From Alphaproteobacteria bacterium (GTDB lineage Bacteria > Pseudomonadota > Alphaproteobacteria > Rs-D84): a stretch of DNA of 64,000 nucleotides. Below, piece by piece: positions 5,165 through 28,675 of the stretch; position 1 is the stretch's first letter; each line of letters opens with the position of its first letter. The DNA lies in the NCBI GenBank assembly GCA_017443235.1, contig JAFSOV010000018.1, positions 11,180 through 75,179 of the forward strand. The letters are read 5' to 3'. The translations under genes were made by a program, and so were the position numbers. The notes beneath the pieces were generated by a model. It was not told where the DNA came from. It saw nothing but the letters and a program-made list of their open reading frames with translations, and made no database searches.

Positions 5165-6247
5165 ATGAAAAATTATGTACCCGTCATCGCAATCGCCACC
5201 ATTATATCCACGTACGGCGCCGCGAACGCATGCACCGGAATAACACTGACCGCGGATGATAATTCTGTTATTGCCGCGCGCACCGTTGATTGGTCGGGTT
5301 CGAAAATGGACAACATATACGTCATTTCCCCGCGGGGACATACCGAACAATCATTGTTGCCGGATGGCACCCAAGACGGCATGGCGTTCACCGCGAAATA
5401 CGGCTTTGTGGGCCTGGGGATGCAACGGCCCGAATTCGTTGTTGACGGCACGAATGAGGCCGGATTAAATGTCGGCCTGTTCTATTTCCCGGACTTTGGT
5501 AAATACCAACCATACGACGCCACGTACCGCAATAAAACACTGGCCGATTTCCAAGTGGTGTCTTGGATACTGTCGCAATTTTCCACCATAGACGAAGTTA
5601 AAAACGCAATCGACAATGTTCGCATCGTGAACATAGACCCAACCGCATCAACTGTTCATTGGCGCATTACCGAACCGTCGGGGCGCGTGGTTGTAATGGA
5701 AATCATAGATGGTATTCCAACATTCTATGAAAACCCCATCGGCGTCATTGCGAATTCGCCGAACTTTGATTGGCATATGACGAACCTTGATAATTATGTC
5801 AACCTTTATCCGGGGCGTGCGGGTCCAACCCAATTTGGCCCGATTAAATTGCGTTCGCTCAGTAATGGCACAGGGCTGCGCGGATTGCCGGGTGATTTTT
5901 CATCGCCATCGCGTTTCGTGCGCGCATCGTTTTTGAAAACCTATGCGATTCCGCAAAAGACGGGCCGCGATACAGTTATGCAATCTTTCCACATTTTGAA
6001 TAACTTTGACGTCCCGTTTGGCACATCCTACAACATCGGCAAGGCAACATTTGATATGCCGTCTGCAACCCAATGGACAATTTCAACAGACACGGCAAAT
6101 CACATAGTTTATTATCATACGATGTACAACCGCACATTGCGCAAAATCGATATGAACCGCATAGACTTTGACACTGTAAAATTCCAATCGCACCCATTGG
6201 ACACGACCGAAAGCGAAACCATAATCGACGCGCCGGTGAATTGGTAA
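5165..6247 (+). CDS. Choloylglycine hydrolase / penicillin V acylase family (Ntn hydrolase) with signal peptide
   Basis: Signal peptide ending ANA followed by catalytic CTG; ARTVDW, GTNEAGL, ANSP and SRFVRA motifs. Confidence 0.9.
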   Translation: MKNYVPVIAIATIISTYGAANACTGITLTADDNSVIAARTVDWSGSKMDNIYVISPRGHTEQSLLPDGTQDGMAFTAKYGFVGLGMQRPEFVVDGTNEAGLNVGLFYFPDFGKYQPYDATYRNKTLADFQVVSWILSQFSTIDEVKNAIDNVRIVNIDPTASTVHWRITEPSGRVVVMEIIDGIPTFYENPIGVIANSPNFDWHMTNLDNYVNLYPGRAGPTQFGPIKLRSLSNGTGLRGLPGDFSSPSRFVRASFLKTYAIPQKTGRDTVMQSFHILNNFDVPFGTSYNIGKATFDMPSATQWTISTDTANHIVYYHTMYNRTLRKIDMNRIDFDTVKFQSHPLDTTESETIIDAPVNW

Positions 6248-6349
6248 AAATATTTTTGTTTACCATTACCACCACTAACACTAACCACTAATCTATTGCC
6301 TTTTGAAAATTTGGGGCTATAATCGACACGGTTTAACAAAGGAGATATT

Positions 6350-7588
6350 ATGAAAATAAAACCTTTCCGTGGCGTTCGCCCACCCAAAGAATTGGCGGCC
6401 GAGGTTGCATCGCGTCCATACGATGTCCTAAATTCAGTCGAAGCCAAGGCCGAGGCCGGCGAAAAATCATTACTGCATATCATCAAACCGGAAATTGATT
6501 TTGACCCGATTGCCGATGAACACAGCCAGGCGGTTTATGACAAAGCCGTTGAAAATTTCAAACTGTGGCAAGACCGCGGTTGGCTGCGCACGGACGACAA
6601 AGAAATGTATTATATCTATGCCCAAACAATGGACGGCCGGACACAATATGGCCTTGTGGCGGCGGCAAATGTTGATGACTATATGACCGGTAAAATTAAA
6701 AAGCACGAATTGACCCGCAAAGACAAAGAAGACGACCGTATGATTCACGTTCGCAATCAAAACGCAAACATTGAACCGGTGTTCTTTGCGTACCCCGATG
6801 TTGATGAAATGAATAAAATCGTTGCGGACTTCGTCGCGAACAACGCACCGGAATATGATTTTACCGCGGCCGATGGCTTTGGTCATAAATTCTGGGTTAT
6901 TCGTGACGATAAAATCAATGCACGTATAACCGAAATCTTCCGTGATATTCCGGCAATGTATGTCGCGGACGGTCACCATCGCACGGCGGCGGCGGCACGT
7001 GTCGGCGCAGAAAAACGCGCACAAAACCCAAACCACACCGGAACGGAAGAATACAATTATTTCTTGGCGGTAATTTTCCCAGAATCCCAATTAAAGGTTA
7101 TCGACTATAACCGCGTTGTCAAAGATTTGAACGGACTGAGCCCGGAACAATTCTTGGCGGAATTAGAAAAATCTTTTGAAGTAAAAGAAATGGGCACGGA
7201 AATTTACAAACCGACAAAATTGCATAACTTTGGTATGTATTTGAACGGAAAATGGTATTCATTGACGGCGCGGCCGGGTACATATAACGACAACGACCCA
7301 ATCGGTGTTTTGGACGTGACGGTGTTGTCGAATTTGGTGTTCGATAAAATCTTGAACCTGGGCGATTTGCGGACCAGTAAACGTATCGACTTTGTCGGCG
7401 GTATTCGCGGATTGGCGGAATTACAGAAACGCGTGGATAGTGGTGAAATGGTTGCGGCGTTTGCGCTGTACCCCGTGACGATGCGTCAAATTATTGACAT
7501 TGCGGACACCGGCAACATTATGCCACCGAAAACGACATGGTTTGAACCAAAACTGCGCAGTGGTTTGGTCATTCACAAATTGTCATAA
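6350..7588 (+). CDS. DUF1015 family protein
   Basis: KPFRGVRP, PYDV, KHELTR, YVADGHHR and MPPKTTWFEPKLRSGL motifs. Confidence 0.9.
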   Translation: MKIKPFRGVRPPKELAAEVASRPYDVLNSVEAKAEAGEKSLLHIIKPEIDFDPIADEHSQAVYDKAVENFKLWQDRGWLRTDDKEMYYIYAQTMDGRTQYGLVAAANVDDYMTGKIKKHELTRKDKEDDRMIHVRNQNANIEPVFFAYPDVDEMNKIVADFVANNAPEYDFTAADGFGHKFWVIRDDKINARITEIFRDIPAMYVADGHHRTAAAARVGAEKRAQNPNHTGTEEYNYFLAVIFPESQLKVIDYNRVVKDLNGLSPEQFLAELEKSFEVKEMGTEIYKPTKLHNFGMYLNGKWYSLTARPGTYNDNDPIGVLDVTVLSNLVFDKILNLGDLRTSKRIDFVGGIRGLAELQKRVDSGEMVAAFALYPVTMRQIIDIADTGNIMPPKTTWFEPKLRSGLVIHKLS

Positions 7589-9825: not shown

Positions 9826-12800
9826 TTAAATTCCAACCGCATGCGACAATTTCATCATAAAAATCGATTCGTTTCCATATTCATCGATATTATTTGGATT
9901 TATGCGGTAAATAAACCCAATTGCACCGTCTGTAAATGGCCCAAAGTTATGATGATACGATGCATTAAACCGCAATTCGCGCGACCGCGGCGACATATCT
10001 ATGTGCCGCACACCCATATTGGAAACCGCCAAATCATATTGACCATCGCCCGCATCAATTATGTCATAATCGGCATACGCATAACTTATATCACCATTTG
10101 TCGCCGCCAACGGCACAGACGCACCAAAACTGAAATTCCCAATATCGGTGGATACCGCAAACGCATTGGAATCAAAATCCGACATTTGAACCAACATTCC
10201 CGATTCGGTGTTTGGCGTTGTGTGTGCAAATGTTGCACGCGCGCGCAATTTCACCGTTTCCCACGGCACAAAGTATGCATCTATATCAACATAGTTTGTA
10301 TTTGACGCGCCAATCGCCATCAATCCCGAACCATACGATCCCATAACCGTATTATTTTCGTGCATCGCACCAAACGCAGTATTTATACCGAATCGGTTAT
10401 TGCCCCAGCCTAATTCAGATTGCGCACCCGAAATCGCACCCAAATGCATCGGTTCATAATTTGACGAAATTGTCGGGTCATTTGCCAACAATCCTTCGTC
10501 TGTTATCACACCCGAAAATGCCCGCGCACCAAACGCCCAATTACCGTAATTATAATGCGCATCACCCGTCACCGCATTAGACGCCAACGCCAAAATCGGA
10601 TTCGCCATACCGGTAAAGCGCGATTCTCCGTTTGTCAAATAACGTTGATAATCGGCGCCCAATTTCCAATTTTCATTCGCATATTCCAAACGCATAAAAT
10701 CCAAACCGCCCATATTATCATTATATGCACGTTCCGACCGCGCCAGGCCAAACGACATATTTCCAAAACGGACCGCATCGGGCCGCGCCGTGCGCACGCG
10801 TAAATCACCCAACACGTCACCCATATACAGACCGCGCCGACCAGCATCATTCCCAAACGCAATCGAATTCTTCCAAACGCGCGGCAACCACATAGACCCA
10901 TCAATACTTTCCAACATATCATACGCCGCAACATCAATGGCACCACGCCCAAGGTTTAACGCCGCCGAAGACCGGAACCCGGTATTTACCGCCGCACGCC
11001 AATATGCATTGCCCGATGTAGATGCAATACTGTTTCCATCATAGAAATACAAATTCGTTCCCGGTGTCGTCGCCCGTTCAAGATTTATCACACCATAACC
11101 AAACACTTCTTTGAACACATCCAAATAATCTTCGCCATTATCGATACGCCATTGATATGATTCAGGCATTATATACATATCTGTCAAATGTGTCACCAAA
11201 GTGGTTTCGTTTAATTGTGTTCCGGACGTCAAACGATTCAGAAACGGTCCATCCGCCGTCAATGCCAACAGCATAAATATCTGTTGTGGGGTCATATAGT
11301 AAAATGCCGAACGCAACACGCCCGCCGCGCCCGCCGCCGCGGCCACCGCCATTTCATCGGTGACACCCACGGCCGCAAAGCACCACGGATCAATACCATC
11401 GCCGCCCTTGCCTGCGACACCACATACACGCGATTTATAATATGTTGCATCCGTACCATCACCAACCGCCCATTGTGCCAATTGGTACTTATTGCTGTTG
11501 ACATCAGAATTTGGTGTTATAGATGTCACACCCGCAGTTGATGCACCAACCGCCACCACCGACATAAACAAATGTTCTAAATTACCATTGCCATAAACCA
11601 ACGGTGCCGCATTTTCAAACGTTGCATCCAACGGCGCATCAGACCAGTCCGAATCCGTCTTGAATCCACCCGTTGAAAAAATCGTCAACGGCGAATAACG
11701 CGCCCCCAGATTATTAAAGAACGATGTTGCATTTGTTGTTGTGGGGCTGGTTGTGTTGGCCGTCCCATACGATTCACCAATCAAATTCAAAAATTTTGCC
11801 TTGTAATTAGATGCCCCAGCTTCAAGAATATCGCTGATTGTGCCCGCACCGACTTCGTGCAAAGGTTCAATCACGTCCGCATTTGCAATCACGTCAACGG
11901 CCGAACGCCCGCCCGACAAATCACCCGCATACGACAACATTCCGGCATCAACCAACGCGGTATAATTGTAATAATCAATCGAATTTCCCGCCGAATCCAC
12001 ACCGCCACCCGTGCGATAAATTGTCATTTGCCCATTTGGCATAAATCCAACAAAATCCCCATTAGGGGCCGTTGCCATATTTCCGCCGACAATTTTTGCC
12101 AACAAATCATCCCACTCCGTTGCATCCGTGTTATGTATCGCTGTTCCCGCCCCAGATAAATCGAACGCGGCCTCTTCCGTCACCGTGTCATCCGAAACAC
12201 TTGATGTGTCTGAACCATACGTAATCGTGTTGTTGTAATATTTGCTGGAAATCATGGTATTACTTGCATTATTCAACGACGACGGCCCAGAATTAGTGGT
12301 CCAGATTAAAAATTTTTCCTGCAAAGACGTATCATCCGCGGCATTTATACCATTGGCGGTAATCAACGCGACATTGACCGGGCGACCACCTTCGACCGGA
12401 TCGCCCCCCAAATTGTACTGACTGGTTGAAAGCGGTGCATTTGTTTCCAAATTCCGCAACGTTCGCATTCCTAAATACCCACGCGCCAATGGCGAATACC
12501 CCCGCATCAACAGCAAATAATTTTGATTTTCGTTCATTAAAACAAAATTCTCGTAATTTGGGGTATTTTCAACTTGGGTCTCATCCGCACCCGTGATGTA
12601 TTGGTTGTAGAACACCCCAAATGCATCGGTATAGCCTGAACTTTCCATTGATGCATTTGGCATTGCCGGCCCATATGGCAATCCAGATGAAAACACCGCG
12701 GTTCCATCACTTGACGAAGAACCACCACTATTTGAACCGCCACCGGACGAAGAACCCCCGCCCGTATCATCGTTACCATTATCCGGGTCAAACACATCGG

Positions 12801-21790: not shown

Positions 21791-24460
21791 ATGAGAAAAA
21801 TTCTGTTGATATTGGCATTTTTAATTACTGGATTCGGCGCAGACGCCGCACCACGCGCCGGCAATACAAACAATGCACGTACCGGACGTGGTGGTGACAC
21901 AACCACCCCAACACCCCCAACAACGTCGACCGCTGCCGCACGCGGACGCAGTGCCATACAAGCGACACCCAGCACCCAAACATCAACACGTAAAACTATA
22001 ACATCTTCTGCGGCACCTGGACGCACAACAACAGGCACAACAGGCACAACAACAGGCGCATCGGCAAACAGATCTGCCGTCGTATCGCGCGCTGCAAAAC
22101 AAAGCGTTATTGGCACCGGAACCAAGGTCGCGGCCGCGGCACAAAATACTGTGGTTGATGAAAAATGTTGGAATGGATTTATGGGATGCATGGATTCATT
22201 CTGTATGTTGGACAACGCGAACGGCGGACGCTGTATGTGCAGTGACAAAAACGCAGAATACGATTCGATACTCGCGGAAATTCAATCTTTGGACGAACAG
22301 AGTTATCAAATGGCAACCGTCGGCGTAGAACGCATTGAAATGGGTGACGATGCCGATGCGGTTATGAAAAAAACGCAAGAAATCACCAAAAGTATCGAAA
22401 AAGATTCCACGCAATCAAAACGCAAATCTTTGGATTTGTCGGCATGGAATTTGACAGAAATTGACTTTGATGATGGGGACATAGAAGACATTTTCTCAAT
22501 TGCATCGGACGGTTCATCCATCACGAACAAGACCGGCGACGCGTTGTATCGTGCGGCGGCGAAACTGTGCAACACGCAAATGCCGGAATGCAAATCGCAA
22601 TCAACAATGATGGAATTGATGTATAAACAACGCGTGCGTTCCGATTGCACGGCGTATGAAAACAGCCTGCGCCAGAGCCGCACGCAAAGCGCCCAAAAAT
22701 TGGCATCGGCCCAATCGGCTATGCGTGAGGCCGCACTGGAACAATACCGAAACGCGAACAAATATGACCTGGGGCAATGCACGGTTCAATTCAAACAGTG
22801 TATGCAAACAACCGGCGGATGCGGCGACGATTTCAGTGGTTGCGTCGATTATTCTGTGCGCGAAAGTTTGACCAATACTAAAACAGATGGCACAACAAAA
22901 TCTAAAACGACGACCATCAAAGGCACTTCATCCAAAATCACATTATTGGCGGCAACCTATGACGTGTTAGAGGCCAAAAAAGAATTATGTATGTCGGTCA
23001 CGCAACAATGCGTCAACGTCCGTGACCAGGTTTGGGATGCATTCCTGCGCGAAGTCGCGCCCCAGGTAAAGTCTGCGGAATTGATGGCGGAATCCAATAT
23101 GCGCACGTCGTGTATTTCAACTATATCAAATTGTTTCCAAAAGGCATGTAAAGACAATATGGACCCGAACGACCCGGATGGTTCGTACGATATGTGTTTA
23201 ACCAAACCCGATACTTTGCGCAGCGCATGCAAGGTCGAAATAGACCCGTGCGAGGGCGCAATACCGGAAATTATGACCTATGTCAAGGCACGCCTGGCAT
23301 CTATGCGCGTGGATTCGTGTACCAAGGAATTCAAACAATGTTTAACATCCGAAGATCGTTGCGGCGCGGATTATACACAATGTATCGGTCTGGACACAGA
23401 CACAATTGTAGAAATGTGCCCAACGGATAAATTACCCGGATGCAAATACGTTAAGGCGGATAATGACGATTATGTATACTCTAATAACACAGAAACAATT
23501 CGTGCAAACCTTGCACAAATCGCAACGGGCATATTCCTGAATATCGATAATAATATGCTTTCAACATGCCAGAAAGCGTTAGACACCGCGATGTTGCGCG
23601 TCTGTGGCAGTACCGAAAACTGCGACGAATTGACTTCCGATGGTGTGACAGGTGCGCGTTCATTGAAATATAATATTTGTACAGGTACCGGAAGCGATGA
23701 AAAATGTTACGCATCAGCGGACAGCATCCCCAGCGATATTTTGGAAGATTCGACCGTTGCGTGGAATATTGATATCACAGGCATGATTCCATGGGGTGAT
23801 TTATCATATTCAAATAACCAATATACAGGAACCGGATTGGATGACACAAACAAATCAGAAATTGACGCATTGTCAAATGCGGTAAAGAACGCCATTAATG
23901 CGATTAACTCTGACCCAGTTGTTCAATATTGTATGACTGGACGTAAATTCCAAGGATATAAAGAAATTCTAGGAACCGTTAAAGAAGAAGGTGATAATGT
24001 TACTATAGATGAAGATAAAGCACGTTTTCCAAATTTAACAAATCAAATACAAAACCTTATTTGGACATCTGTGTTAAGGTCTGCATATGAAAATTATGTT
24101 CAAAAATATGATGAGTTGACCCAACAAAAAATGAAAGATTCTGTAAAGATAGCAAGTCGTACAGATGAAGCCACCGCCAAAGCAACGGCCCGTGAAGCAT
24201 GTAATGCATGGCATAGTACAAAAGAAATAACCACAACAACCGGTGCGGATGGTAATACCACGGTTGACCTTTCAAATACAAATTATGCCAATGTGTTGGA
24301 TGCACTGCAACAACGTGAAACACACGCCGCATTTAATGAGATTACAGGCGAATGCATTATAACGACCAGATATCAAAAATGCGAATTAAGTTATGGATTT
24401 GATTGTTTGAAATACGGGGAATGGGTCTCAGAAACCACGACAATAAAGTTATTAGATTAA
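21791..24460 (+). CDS. Large Cys-rich exported protein; full-length form at the putative invertible locus
   Basis: GGGG RBS; signal peptide ending ADA; Thr-rich linker; CMDSFC and many CxxxC motifs. Residues from about 555 are homologous to the convergent ORF 24491-25939. Confidence 0.85.
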   Translation: MRKILLILAFLITGFGADAAPRAGNTNNARTGRGGDTTTPTPPTTSTAAARGRSAIQATPSTQTSTRKTITSSAAPGRTTTGTTGTTTGASANRSAVVSRAAKQSVIGTGTKVAAAAQNTVVDEKCWNGFMGCMDSFCMLDNANGGRCMCSDKNAEYDSILAEIQSLDEQSYQMATVGVERIEMGDDADAVMKKTQEITKSIEKDSTQSKRKSLDLSAWNLTEIDFDDGDIEDIFSIASDGSSITNKTGDALYRAAAKLCNTQMPECKSQSTMMELMYKQRVRSDCTAYENSLRQSRTQSAQKLASAQSAMREAALEQYRNANKYDLGQCTVQFKQCMQTTGGCGDDFSGCVDYSVRESLTNTKTDGTTKSKTTTIKGTSSKITLLAATYDVLEAKKELCMSVTQQCVNVRDQVWDAFLREVAPQVKSAELMAESNMRTSCISTISNCFQKACKDNMDPNDPDGSYDMCLTKPDTLRSACKVEIDPCEGAIPEIMTYVKARLASMRVDSCTKEFKQCLTSEDRCGADYTQCIGLDTDTIVEMCPTDKLPGCKYVKADNDDYVYSNNTETIRANLAQIATGIFLNIDNNMLSTCQKALDTAMLRVCGSTENCDELTSDGVTGARSLKYNICTGTGSDEKCYASADSIPSDILEDSTVAWNIDITGMIPWGDLSYSNNQYTGTGLDDTNKSEIDALSNAVKNAINAINSDPVVQYCMTGRKFQGYKEILGTVKEEGDNVTIDEDKARFPNLTNQIQNLIWTSVLRSAYENYVQKYDELTQQKMKDSVKIASRTDEATAKATAREACNAWHSTKEITTTTGADGNTTVDLSNTNYANVLDALQQRETHAAFNEITGECIITTRYQKCELSYGFDCLKYGEWVSETTTIKLLD
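23451..23628 (+). repeat. Inverted repeat, left copy (about 178 bp; partner 25764-25942)
   Basis: Near-identical in reverse complement to 25764-25942, with only a handful of mismatches. Confidence 0.95.
23453..23480 (+). other. dif/XerCD-like recombination site A
   Basis: AAGGCGGATAA-TGACGA-TTATGTATACT: 11-6-11 layout; arms match E. coli dif GGTGCGCATAA-TGTATA-TTATGTTAAAT at 7/11 and 8/11. Confidence 0.65.
23917..23987 (+). repeat. Internal inverted repeat (partner about 25264-25334)
   Basis: Both copies encode VVQYCMTGRKFQGYKEILGTVKE with near-identical DNA. Confidence 0.85.
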
Positions 24461-24462
24461 AC

Positions 24463-24492
24463 AAACTGCCCGCGAATGCGGGCAGTGTTTTT
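24463..24492. terminator. Probable bidirectional terminator between the two convergent cassette ORFs
   Basis: ACTGCCCGC-GAAT-GCGGGCAGT hairpin with A-rich and T-rich flanks. Confidence 0.75.
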
Positions 24493-25939
24493 AGTTTAGC
24501 AGGTTTATTGCCACCGGCGCTTCTTCCACTTCTTCATCCCATTCTTTACAGACGTTCTTTTTTGTTTTTGTACAATTTTGCGTTGTTTTTAATTTTACAC
24601 ATTCGCCAGTTTCGTATTTTGGAATTGTCACAATCTTTTCTTTGTAATTCCATTGTGCCGACACAGAACAACCTACCACTTTATTTCCATTTGCGTCCGT
24701 CGTATTTTCGCATTTATCAATACTTTCTCCACCACTATCCACCAGATCGTTTGTGGTGGATATTCCAATGCCAGCAGCGGCAGCAACAGAAGCACCGGCA
24801 ATAGAAGCGCCTACAATTCCGGCGGTTGAAAGCGTTGTCACTGTCGCTGTTCCAATTACAGTTGGGACAGCTATCTGGCTTCCAACAGCCATAAGAACTG
24901 GCACACTTACTGTTGAGGCAGCACCAAATGTAAATATTGTTGCCACAACCGCAGCAGCCACCAATAAGCTAAATGCAATCCATTTTCCGGCATTGCTTGT
25001 TTTTGGGGTATCTGTTGCGGGCAAACTGGCCGTGTCACCGTATGCGATACAGATTTCCACTGCTTTCGCCTTTGCATTTTCTTCATCGGCAATTTGGGCG
25101 CCTTTAACTTGATCTTGCATCATACGTTTGATTTCTTCATCATATTTTTCCATATAATTTTCACGCGCATTTTTTAATGCGGAATTAGCAATCATCTGGC
25201 GAATTTGGTTGGTTAAATTTGGGAATCGTGCTTTTGAAGAATCTAACACCGTGTTTGTACCACCTTCTTTAACGGTTCCTAGAATTTCTTTATATCCCTG
25301 AAATTTACGTCCGGTCATACAGTATTGAACAACTTGGTCGGATTCAATGGCATTAATCGCGTTTTCAACCGCAGATGTTAATGCTTTGATTTCTATGCCA
25401 TATACACGATCACGAATTATATCATAAGTTCCATTATCTCTTAATTCTTCTACGGTAACTCCTGTTGCCCTTGCAACATTTTGCACATATGTATCAATAG
25501 GGGTAAAATGAAATTTTGTTTGTATATTATCGGTAGTTTGGTCTTTATCTTCTTCATATGAGATTTCCCCCCAATACAAAATACCAGATAAATCCGCACT
25601 GAATAATTCTGTCTTTATAGCGTCTTTCGAAAAACCTTCAATAGAGTTTTTACAAATAGGCGCACTTAATAGATTAAAACTACCCTCAGAGTCTTTGCCA
25701 TTGGTATATTGGCAAATTCTGTACTCTAAACTTCTTGTTCCGGCGCCGTTGTCAACAACAATGTCGTCACAGTTTTCGGTACTGCCACAGACGCGCAACA
25801 TCGCGGTGTCTAACGCTTTCTGGCATGTTGAAAGCATATTATTATCGATATTCAAGAATATGCCTGTGGCGATTTGTGCAAGGTTTGCACGAATTGTTTC
25901 TGTGTTATTATAGTATACATAATCGTCATTATGCGCCAT
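24491..25939 (-). CDS. Alternative (probably silent) C-terminal cassette for the 21791 protein
   Basis: No signal peptide. Begins inside the dif-like site. First ~57 aa nearly identical to aa ~555-612 of the convergent gene. Carries hydrophobic helices (WIAFSLLVAAAVVATIFTFG; GIVGASIAGASVAAAAGIG). Confidence 0.8.
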   Translation of the reverse strand: MAHNDDYVYYNNTETIRANLAQIATGIFLNIDNNMLSTCQKALDTAMLRVCGSTENCDDIVVDNGAGTRSLEYRICQYTNGKDSEGSFNLLSAPICKNSIEGFSKDAIKTELFSADLSGILYWGEISYEEDKDQTTDNIQTKFHFTPIDTYVQNVARATGVTVEELRDNGTYDIIRDRVYGIEIKALTSAVENAINAIESDQVVQYCMTGRKFQGYKEILGTVKEGGTNTVLDSSKARFPNLTNQIRQMIANSALKNARENYMEKYDEEIKRMMQDQVKGAQIADEENAKAKAVEICIAYGDTASLPATDTPKTSNAGKWIAFSLLVAAAVVATIFTFGAASTVSVPVLMAVGSQIAVPTVIGTATVTTLSTAGIVGASIAGASVAAAAGIGISTTNDLVDSGGESIDKCENTTDANGNKVVGCSVSAQWNYKEKIVTIPKYETGECVKLKTTQNCTKTKKNVCKEWDEEVEEAPVAINLLN

Positions 25940-25942
25940 TAA
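25764..25942 (-). repeat. Inverted repeat, right copy
   Basis: Reverse complement matches 23451-23628. Confidence 0.95.
25912..25939 (-). other. dif/XerCD-like recombination site B
   Basis: Minus strand ATGGCGCATAA-TGACGA-TTATGTATACT; 8/11 and 8/11 match to E. coli dif arms; same 6-bp core as site A. Confidence 0.7.
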
Positions 25943-26418
25943 TTCCCCTTCAGCTCTGCTGAAGGGGGGGACCGCGGGACGCGGTGGGGTAGTTGCAAGT
26001 TCTCCTCCACCGGAGGAGTACGGCCCAGCGGGCCGGGAGGTGGGGGTCTCTGTCGCGCCGCAGCCTTGGCGCTTGCATCACGAAGTTTTAACGAAGTGGC
26101 GCAGGCGGACCTGTCCACCGAAGCGCAACGCGCGAAGGCGGATGGGGGCATAAAAAATGATGCTTTTGTGATTTTTACCCCCACCCCGTCGCCGTTCGGC
26201 GCCACCCCTCCGATTATCACCCACAAAATTTTTTCAAATTTTGTGGGGCCCGATGGAGGGGAACTTTCACCCCACCCCTCCGTGAATCACCCAAAAAATG
26301 CTGTGCATTTTTCGGGGACCGATGGAGGGGAACTAAAAACGCGGGGCATTTGCCCCGCGCACTAATAACTACCCCACCACCGCTGGTGGTCCCCCCCTTC
26401 GGTATCCGAAGGGGAATT
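25942..26418. repeat. Cluster of palindromic REP-like elements from several families, partly nested
   Basis: TCCCCTTC-N-GAAGGGGGGGACC-N-GGTGGGGTAG at 25943-25992 and inverted at 26368-26417; CCCCTCC..GGAGGGG variants and CCGAAG..GAAGGCGGA-type units between them. Confidence 0.85.
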
Positions 26419-26423
26419 ATCAC

Positions 26424-28396: not shown

Positions 28397-28675
28397 TCCC
28401 CTTCACATTCCCGGGCCCCGAAAAATACGAAAGTATTTTTTGGGTGGGTTTGAAGTGGGGGACACGGTGGGGTAGTAAGTCCCCTTCACATTGTGAAGGG
28501 GGGGACCGGCGGAGCCGGTGGGGTAGTAAGTCCCCTTCACATTGTGAAGGGGGGGACCGCGGGACGCGGTGGGGTAGAACCGGGCGCGTATGCGCACCCG
28601 TGCAAAGCACGGGGCAACTACCCCCCGGCACGCTGTGCCGTACCCCTTCTTAATAAGAAGGGGAATTCGCGACGG
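28397..28675. repeat. REP-like cluster: three direct copies and one inverted copy
   Basis: TCCCCTTCACATTGTGAAGGGGGGGACC..GGTGGGGTAG at ~28397 (interrupted), 28479 and 28530; inverted copy at 28617-28665. Confidence 0.9.

Follow-up and report, generated by a model that had tools for sequence, protein, structure and literature searches.

The window analyzed here, a 64,000-nucleotide (nt) stretch of DNA (positions 11180 to 75179 of contig C15 in assembly G000, which comprises 984,916 bases in 18 contigs and is 94% complete), carries a chromosomal locus adjoining rplQ-rpoA in which an 889-amino-acid (aa) gene faces an oppositely oriented 482-aa frame with a related C-terminal sequence. The locus is likely a genuine switch that swaps protein tails, and Xer-type site-specific recombination at two mimics of the chromosomal dif site is slightly favored as the mechanism, with a probability of roughly 0.55. 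This reading builds on the anatomy of the locus, the likeness of its two sites to the organism's own candidate dif, the conservation of such sites in a second species with a core that co-varies within the pair, the presence of genes for XerC-like, XerD-like and FtsK gamma-domain proteins, the lack of a recombinase gene next to the locus, and a chimeric junction in natural populations.

The 889-aa frame (P0001; 21791 to 24460, plus strand) translates into a signal-peptide-like start, a Thr/Ser/Pro-rich stretch and a Cys-rich body. It converges, with 30 nt between, on the intact 482-aa frame (P0002; 24491 to 25939, minus strand), which has no signal peptide and whose ATG opens the outer arm of its own site. 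P0002 aligned with residues 556 to 816 of P0001 at 51% identity, and the first ∼58 residues were nearly identical; the second cassette differs from the first mainly by extra loops and by a long hydrophobic Gly/Ala/Val-rich stretch ahead of the Cys-rich tail that both share. This alignment, together with the convergent order, indicates one N-terminal part with two alternative C-terminal cassettes arranged tail to tail. The features of the locus, in window coordinates, are as follows.

21791 to 23452, plus: constant N-terminal part, 554 aa, belonging to the expressed 889-aa gene (open reading frame list and translation)
23453 to 23480, plus: in-gene dif-like site, AAGGCGGATAA-TGACGA-TTATGTATACT, arms 10/11 and 10/11 identical to the genus dif
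23455 to 23628, plus: left arm of the 174-nt inverted repeat (97%), encoding the ∼58 first residues common to both cassettes
23481 to 24460, plus: cassette 1, the currently expressed C-terminal part, a short type without the hydrophobic Gly/Ala-rich stretch
23857 to 23992, plus: inner inverted repeat (84%), in a block conserved in both cassettes, with its partner at 25259 to 25394
24465 to 24486, either strand: hairpin between the convergent frames, interpreted as a terminator for both strands
24491 to 25939, minus: cassette 2, intact 482-aa frame, a long type without a signal peptide
25259 to 25394, minus: partner arm of the inner inverted repeat (repeat search)
25764 to 25937, minus: right arm of the 174-nt inverted repeat (repeat search and pairwise alignment)
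25912 to 25939, minus: dif-like site of the silent cassette, ATGGCGCATAA-TGACGA-TTATGTATACT
26339 to 26360, minus: terminator-like hairpin 3′ of rplQ, which would shield the silent cassette from read-through

Both sites are 28 bp long with an 11-6-11 layout and occupy the outer ends of the inverted repeat 23455 to 23628/25764 to 25937, exactly where the original prediction, made from the sequence alone, had placed them. In a pairwise alignment of the two repeat copies, similarity begins within the outer arm and none is found beyond it. Counted from the first base of the site inward over the whole repeat, the copies have just seven mismatches, at 23454, 23459, 23481, 23524, 23527, 23537 and 23623. 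The core TGACGA and the inner arm are identical in the two sites and the outer arms differ at 2 of 11 positions, again as had been described, giving the general form A(A/T)GGCG(G/C)ATAA-TGACGA-TTATGTATACT with partial dyad symmetry in the inner arm parts (CATAA/TTATG). The sites double as codons: both are read in one frame, as K-A-D-N-D-D-Y-V-Y-S within the 889-aa gene and as M-A-H-N-D-D-Y-V-Y-Y at the start of the 482-aa frame.

A scan of G000 for the inner arm parts identified a candidate dif at C17:144-171 (minus strand), AAGGCGCATAA-TGTATA-TTATGTATAGT, which is intergenic, lies at the start of a 10.7-kb contig and has the same core as the Escherichia coli dif quoted in the original prediction. 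The exact pattern ATAA-N6-TTATGTATA was found in 242 of the 257 genomes of the genus, and nearly all listed rows gave one ATAAT(G/A/T)TATATTATGTATA per genome. Across 27 of the 30 fetched loci, all 28 positions were at least 80% conserved and the flanks were not. At up to two mismatches, the arm pattern occurred in 99 of 101 sampled genomes, while reverse-pattern controls gave two-mismatch matches at chance level. On sequence grounds, this conserved 28-mer has the look of a dif.

Each cassette site matched the candidate dif at 10/11 positions in both arms and differed from it at three of the six core positions. The two sites are therefore closer to the host's own candidate dif than to that of E. 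coli, for which the earlier count of 7 to 8 matches per 11-nt arm is arithmetically right for the sequence as quoted. Over all 984,916 bases on both strands, only three sites had two or fewer mismatches to the 22 arm positions of the genus dif, namely the candidate dif and the two cassette sites, and no further site was found up to four mismatches; 20 shuffles gave a mean of 0 sites at three or fewer mismatches and 0.15 at four or fewer. When 18 arm positions were used, the same three were the only sites in G000 at one mismatch or less, and the next best had four. The match of the cassette sites to the genus dif exceeds chance. The possibility that one cassette site is simply the chromosomal dif was ruled out: the cassette sites are a coding pair, the organism has its own conserved single-copy 28-mer elsewhere, on C17, and the cores differ at half of their positions.

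Under the proposed mechanism, one promoter, one signal peptide and the 554-aa N-terminal part (21791 to 23452) could be joined in frame to either cassette (23481 to 24460, plus; 25911 to 24491, minus), and programmed inversion would exchange the C-terminal third of a secreted, Cys-rich protein. The two outer-edge 28-mers would serve as crossover sites, combining the binding arms of the organism's own dif with a private 6-bp core, TGACGA, and XerC and XerD would bind the left and right arms of both. The likeliest enzyme would be housekeeping XerC/XerD working in trans, or else a tyrosine recombinase that recognizes the same arms. The private core would let the two sites pair together and not with dif. 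Strand exchange within the core would invert ∼2.46 kb and bring cassette 2, with its hydrophobic stretch, behind the N-terminal part, and the reverse event would restore the present arrangement. We infer that the segment inverts and can flip back, that Xer proteins bind and cut the sites, and that the cell surface changes as a result. Xer sites on plasmids use an FtsK-independent path in which XerC acts first; either such a path or one that requires FtsK may operate here.

The same layout was found in a second species. G192 is the closest relative examined, its rpoA being 94% identical to that of G000 compared with 85 to 89% in nine other relatives (rpoA was present in 9 of the 10 other loci); the N-terminal part is 66% identical. 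It carries a 938-aa gene and, convergent with it and 27 nt away, an intact frame of 424 aa whose start ATG lies in the site. The G192 inverted repeat (97 nt, 92.8%) begins in the site, and the sites read GAAACGCATAA-TGCTAA-TTATGTATACC in the gene (C4:61742, plus) and ATGGCGCATAA-TGCTAA-TTATGTATACC at the silent frame (C4:64217, minus). Inspection of every genome with at least two matches showed that an inverted pair sharing one non-dif core is confined to G000 and G192 among the 257 genomes. Between the two species the core differs (TGACGA versus TGCTAA), within each pair it is identical, and the arms are kept. The silent-side outer arm, ATGGCGCATAA, is 11/11 identical in the two species, and the DNA upstream of it is unalignable; this arm is not within the inverted segment, and the expressed gene never includes it. 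Both silent frames (482 and 424 aa) are intact at ∼33% mutual identity, lack a signal peptide and have a hairpin upstream. A dead remnant would not have remained open for so long.

Natural populations provided a view of the junction itself. Seven sequencing runs contained part of the stretch, of which four from one study (X1 to X4) contained 92 to 94% of its words; these are gut metagenomes represented by contigs only. In X1 to X3, the gene-side contig ends exactly at 23480 and the next starts at 23482. The sole difference listed within 22900 to 25800 in the contigs of X1 to X4 was 23481 C>A, where A is the base of the other cassette. The contig bearing it carries the gene-side arm, with no change listed at 23459, and the variant stands 9 letters from the contig end, as expected of a 31-mer path bounded by the marker at 23459. 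The A joined to the gene-side arm had a depth of 11.3, 4 and 3.3 in X1 to X3, against 33.4, 19.9 and 9.8 in the gene-side flanks, and the left arm of the repeat had a contig depth ∼1.6 to 2 times that of its flanks in these three runs. A 7449-nt contig of X4 extends from the gene to 23622; its sole change is A at 23481, which is the sole form there. A chimeric junction made of the gene-side arm and the first base of the other cassette was thus present in 4/4 runs of one study. Markers 23459 and 23481 bracket the 6-bp core, and the combination of A at 23481 with the gene-side base at 23459 places the exchange within 23459 to 23481, a 21-nt interval that holds the core. The exchange at 23481 is variable among populations that are otherwise identical. 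Which cassette comes after the junction is beyond what contigs can show. The rplQ-side flank is a tangle of multicopy repeats and X4 has no cover at 25804 to 25924, a gap from which no conclusion was drawn. Among 5.8 billion proteins, the best match to the inverted-form protein (N-terminal part plus cassette 2) was 79% identical, which is uninformative since the species itself is unrepresented there.

Several observations weigh against Xer-type inversion; those on the contigs and the repeat are given here, and those on the enzymes, the candidate dif and relatives with a single site are given with these subjects below. The reciprocal junction (25911 T>G) was not listed in the contigs of X1 to X4, and the whole inverted form was in no contig. 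On the X4 contig, A at 23481 is followed by the plus-copy letters at 23524, 23527 and 23537; set against the minus copy of the window, the pattern looks like a short gene-conversion patch, unless these three differences are missing from that strain's own minus copy. Contig breaks occur at the inner repeat as well, where a short exact repeat lies. In addition, both G000 copies carry 24 nt immediately internal to the site that neither G192 copy has, so the repeat has been homogenized within each species and homologous exchange acts here. Cores would stay alike under concerted evolution, too, and the co-varying core is weaker evidence for that reason.

The unlisted reciprocal junction, the X4 pattern, the breaks at the inner repeat and the concerted evolution speak for a rival explanation, in which RecA-dependent homologous recombination between the 174-nt repeats (97 nt in G192) flips or converts the cassettes and the 28-mer only marks the end of homology, as a coding motif or as a relic of the rearrangement that gave rise to the truncated cassette; recA is present in G000. 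Concerted evolution does not, however, explain the likeness to the dif arms, the conserved outer arm or the codon conservation. RecA-dependent exchange leaves unexplained why the arms agree with the organism's own dif at 20/22 positions, why the silent-side outer arm, at the very edge of homology, is 11/11 identical in two species and why the single in-gene copies of three other relatives (described below) have unchanged codons. Homology ends just 26 nt from the exchanged marker at 23481, and 23459 is mismatched in between. Minimal pairing length makes the ends of homology poor places for RecA-type crossovers. This explanation was considered unlikely, if not negligibly so. The co-option of Xer recombination put forward in the original prediction thus stands in part: the dif-like sites, the genes for XerC-like, XerD-like and FtsK gamma-domain proteins and the G192 pair speak for it, and the absence of the reciprocal junction from the contigs and the action of homologous exchange as well speak against it.

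As had been noted from the sequence, no recombinase adjoins the locus: contig C15 had no match to PF00589 or PF00239, and a scan of the 37 window open reading frames against Pfam found no recombinase domain. Elsewhere in G000, PF00589 matched on C6, C7, C13 (two) and C14, and PF00239 on C4 (two), C7, C10, C13 and C18. The housekeeping genes and the dif whose existence the Xer proposal presupposed have candidates in the genome. A XerD-like gene (C6:24151-25017, 288 aa) scored 305.9 bits on NF001399 (cutoff, 279) and best on XerD-type models, a XerC-like gene (C7:25490-26413, 307 aa) scored best on the XerC model TIGR02224, and an FtsK gamma domain is encoded on C6 (78.7 bits). Both Xer-like proteins nevertheless fall under the NCBIfam equivalog cutoffs (TIGR02225, 295.7 versus 329.6; TIGR02224, 284.2 versus 335.15).

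G000 also encodes three Mpi-family-like serine recombinases and three more tyrosine recombinases (349, 398 and 510 aa), any one of which could act in trans on the locus. The 211-aa serine recombinase at C13:120646-121281 scored 258.9 bits on NF009949 (master DNA invertase Mpi family; cutoff, 272), two further small PF00239 proteins are encoded at C4:54320 and C10:14661, and Mpi and RecV are known to act on distant sites. Similar extras occur in G192, which has four small serine recombinases and extra tyrosine recombinase matches, but small serine recombinases are equally present in G225, G153 and G090, all of which lack the pair. An alternative parsing of the cassette site is a 7-2-7 palindrome with one mismatch (CATAATG-AC-GATTATG); such a reading leaves aside that the site copies both dif arms over 11 + 11 positions, including the nonpalindromic outer parts. 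A master invertase would be expected to have several targets, but no further copy of the cassette site or of its core region was found in G000, and the copies in other surface genes for which the original prediction proposed a scan were not found. The inverted repeats around the three Mpi-like genes are chance-level pairs only, none like the cassette site; no match to PF01548 (Piv/IS110-type) was found in G000, and a literature search for the Mpi site motif returned nothing. Inversion by one of these other enzymes is accordingly regarded as improbable. On C13, the gene for the 349-aa tyrosine recombinase is followed 3 nt on by the Mpi-family-like 211-aa gene (C13:119594-121281), and a 398-aa integrase-like gene lies ∼5 kb upstream; this segment may be a mobile element.

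For Xer-type inversion, the position of the candidate dif is a further point of doubt. In two of the two relatives in which skew was followed over 160 to 400 kb (G051:C2:226491 and G003:C1:388644), the conserved 28-mer was not at the GC-skew switch; in G003:C1, the switch is near 475 kb and the 28-mer at 388.6 kb, ∼90 kb apart (loci L070 to L098). The role of the candidate dif at the replication terminus is thus unconfirmed.

Inverted partial copies of the XerD-side arm, together with a few flanking bases, occur beside the candidate dif. In G000 (C17:1-175), they lie in two 73-bp tandem units, and in G167 (C23:14653-14776) and G050 (C34:2442-2565) a partial copy, ATAACGAATATTATGTATA, is found ∼100 bp from dif in the opposite orientation. 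G156 (C2:24405 and C13:748) and G097 (C9:29603 and C12:9) each have two copies of the full dif-type string on separate contigs, some of them at contig ends, which could reflect assembly duplication or an integrated Xer-dependent element. Second, degenerate dif-like sites were identified 1.4 to 4.4 kb from dif in G047 (C5:47820/49281), G083 (C17:14477/18832) and G107 (C32:6534/10909), a layout that Xer-integrated elements would be expected to show.

The protein belongs to a family with 11 to 15 paralogue matches per genome in a genus of uncultured ∼0.9-Mb bacteria, named in the databases as Alphaproteobacteria metagenome-assembled genomes. Within it, the site sits in a hypervariable, indel-rich linker between two conserved blocks (…MCPxDKLxGC, linker, IATGIFLNIDN…), and most orthologues lack the stretch. 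Three relatives carry a single in-gene site at the same place: AAGGCGGATAA-TGGTAA-TTATGTATACA in G153 (3 arm mismatches), GGGACGTATAA-TAACGA-TTATGTATACA in G090 (6 arm mismatches) and GAGACAAATAA-TGACAG-TTATGTATACC in G219 (6 arm mismatches). The right (XerD-side) arm is better kept than the left in these single copies. In known accessory Xer sites, it is likewise the XerD-side arm that is better kept. The assemblies of all three hold no partner site, and inversion that depends on a pair does not explain single copies.

Site DNA is conserved beyond what the amino acids demand. The codons of the N..Y-V-Y residues were the same as in G000 in 12/12 comparisons across G153, G090 and G219, against codon identities of 17/35, 13/35 and 22/32 (37 to 69%) at conserved residues of the flanking blocks, although the species are related and the comparison is not a formal test. 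A 27-nt island of identity, broken only in the core and set within an unalignable linker, points to constraint on the DNA. In many genomes, contigs end ∼10 to 200 nt upstream of the linker and leave open frames of 470 to 530 aa (for example, G127:C3, G048:C20, G245:C23, G076:C5, G013:C2 and G271:C1), which fits assemblers collapsing the near-identical N-terminal parts of tandem paralogues.

Such tandem paralogues bear on whether any switching takes place. Two full-length paralogues in tandem were present in 5 of 10 relatives (G003, G017, G012, G021 and G004), beside rplQ where this was fetched; when both tails were in the stretch, one was of the cassette 1 type and one of the cassette 2 type, so that tails of the cassette 1 type occur in relatives as separate full-length paralogues, while G000 has one N-terminal part for both. 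The minus frame could accordingly be a paralogue remnant that has lost its N-terminal half, or a gene expressed from its own ATG, with the likeness to dif arising from a peptide motif (A-D/H-N-x-x-Y-V-Y) and codon habit. A related motif, A-D-N/K-x-D-Y-V-Y, is found in database relatives P0005 and P0006, and single in-gene copies without a partner exist. In G000, GGGGA precedes the ATG by 5 nt, but this putative ribosome-binding sequence is not kept in G192. The truncated frames, moreover, have stayed intact in both species despite their divergence and lack the signal peptide of the family. Without switching, it would be an unexplained coincidence that the outer edge of a full dif-like 28-mer is precisely where the truncation falls, and the polymorphism at 23481 is the base of the other copy. 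Absence of switching is thus assigned a small probability.

A bolder form of the Xer-type reading is that housekeeping XerCD itself, with no dedicated paralogue, swaps the tails in frame, reversibly and as a programmed event at the dif mimics with their private core, and that the sites in G153, G090 and G219 are docking points at which C-terminal cassettes are captured or exchanged. This extension is rather unlikely. If true, it would amount to a chromosomal, intragenic counterpart of the plasmid dif-module system, a Xer-driven cassette platform for surface proteins.

On the favored reading, the locus would join two known kinds of system, programmed gene-altering inversion and Xer sites outside dif. 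The G segment of Mu and the C segment of P1 are gene-altering programmed inversions. The dimer-resolution sites of plasmids and Xer-exploiting integrative elements (cer, psi and CTX-type elements) are nonchromosomal dif mimics in which the XerD-side arm is conserved, the XerC-side arm varies more and the central region is their own. Unlike the switch proposed for the window locus, these mimics give integration, excision or resolution between direct or intermolecular sites and not in-frame inversion within a host gene. Trans-acting master invertases are exemplified by Bacteroides Mpi and Clostridioides difficile RecV, dedicated enzymes with several targets, mostly promoters. Their systems share with the present one an invertible locus without an adjacent recombinase gene, the enzyme being coded elsewhere, but in G000 these arms recur at just one other site, the candidate dif.

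Gene-altering programmed inversions are described as widespread, some of them without a nearby recombinase (PMC9881135; bioRxiv 10.1101/2023.03.11.532203), and the term Xer has 0 occurrences in the main text of either source; the first of them counts 11,955 predicted programmed inversions. Shufflon-like systems and "partial intergenic invertons," such as R64 pilV and phage tail-fiber segments, resemble the window locus in having a constant 5′ part, opposed alternative 3′ cassettes and a crossover at the junction, and typically target surface or specificity proteins (PMC9881135; bioRxiv 10.1101/2023.03.11.532203). Their anatomy, with repeats, one of them in coding sequence, flanking alternative in-frame 3′ cassettes, was found in G000 and in G192. 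They use dedicated invertases (Rci, Gin/Cin/Hin, PsrA and others) with sites of their own; in contrast, the sites here copy dif arms. A recombinase gene in or next to the segment, which is usual and not obligatory in such systems, was not found on contig C15.

On Rep_3 plasmids of Acinetobacter, pairs of pXerC/D sites that face opposite ways and share a 6-bp spacer give rise to reversible inversions (PMC9947245). These pXerC/D (pdif) sites are, like the cassette sites, 28-bp Xer-type sites away from the chromosomal dif that form inverted pairs with the same 6-bp core, and there the host XerC/D act in trans; as that article describes them, however, they are on plasmids and flank whole modules, such as resistance genes, whereas the present pair is chromosomal and inside a reading frame (PMC9947245). 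The window locus is not a discrete plasmid module bounded by pXerC/D sites, as Acinetobacter dif modules are. In Ureaplasma parvum, XerC (UU222) inverts the mba locus and the UU172 element, and CodV binds a putative dif (PMC3599477). There, too, a Xer-named tyrosine recombinase drives inversion for surface-protein phase variation at short inverted repeats, but the article presents that enzyme as a third, dedicated paralogue and the repeats as distinct from the putative dif (PMC3599477), while the sites studied here are dif look-alikes. A literature search, which was partial and covered texts without supplementary tables, found no report of in-frame chromosomal dif mimics that swap protein tails.

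Inversions that recombine genes are known, as is the hijacking of Xer by plasmids and integrative elements, and arms of an organism's own dif placed in frame would link the two. Should Xer-type inversion be correct, a universal housekeeping recombinase would double as a phase-variation enzyme, and a very small genome (∼1 Mb) could vary its surface without a dedicated enzyme. It would also account for invertible loci without a neighboring invertase and would supply a search rule for any genome, namely the arms of its own dif, a private core and inverted pairs.

Neither P0001 nor P0002 matched a family in the Pfam scan, by which rplQ was identified, and in the ESM Atlas the protein matched only "hypothetical protein" clusters with TM (template modeling) below 0.5. 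Upstream of the silent frame lie the terminator-like hairpin of rplQ and GC-rich repeats resembling repetitive extragenic palindromic (REP) elements; the minus strand scanned for promoters over 25940 to 26340 gave no promoter-like match.

Other inverted repeats within 15 kb of each other in G000 were all unrelated to the cassette repeat, being REP-like elements or a duplicated 110-bp upstream region on C3. The latter (C3:222-331/6448-6557, 98% identity) is an inverted repeat upstream of oppositely oriented genes for signal-peptide proteins (380 to 1033, plus; 5398 to 6411, minus); it resembles a duplicated upstream region and has no dif-like motif. An exact search of Joint Genome Institute (JGI) metagenome contigs with the 21-mer shared by the cassette sites gave 0 matches. 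With the core left free, the arm pattern gave one match there, in an intergenic position on a small contig from an unrelated organism (L169:1169-1195, ATGGCGCATAA-TAGTTA-TTATGTATACT). Its arms equal those of the silent-side site of the window and its core differs; it is presumably a site of Xer type from a different bacterium or element and is not informative on the window locus.

The short exact inverted repeat in the conserved inner block (…RKFQGYKEILGTVKE…; 23958 to 23983/25268 to 25293) is marked by 26-nt overlaps of Logan contigs, and exchange there would swap the distal tails only. The spacers around rplQ and rpoA (window 25960 to 26420 and 28443 to 28577) are packed with GC-rich palindromic repeats (TGAAGGGGGGGACC…GGTGGGGTAG and related elements); these recur elsewhere in G000, for example on C18 and C5, and have a depth 3 to 10 times that of their flanks in the metagenome contigs.

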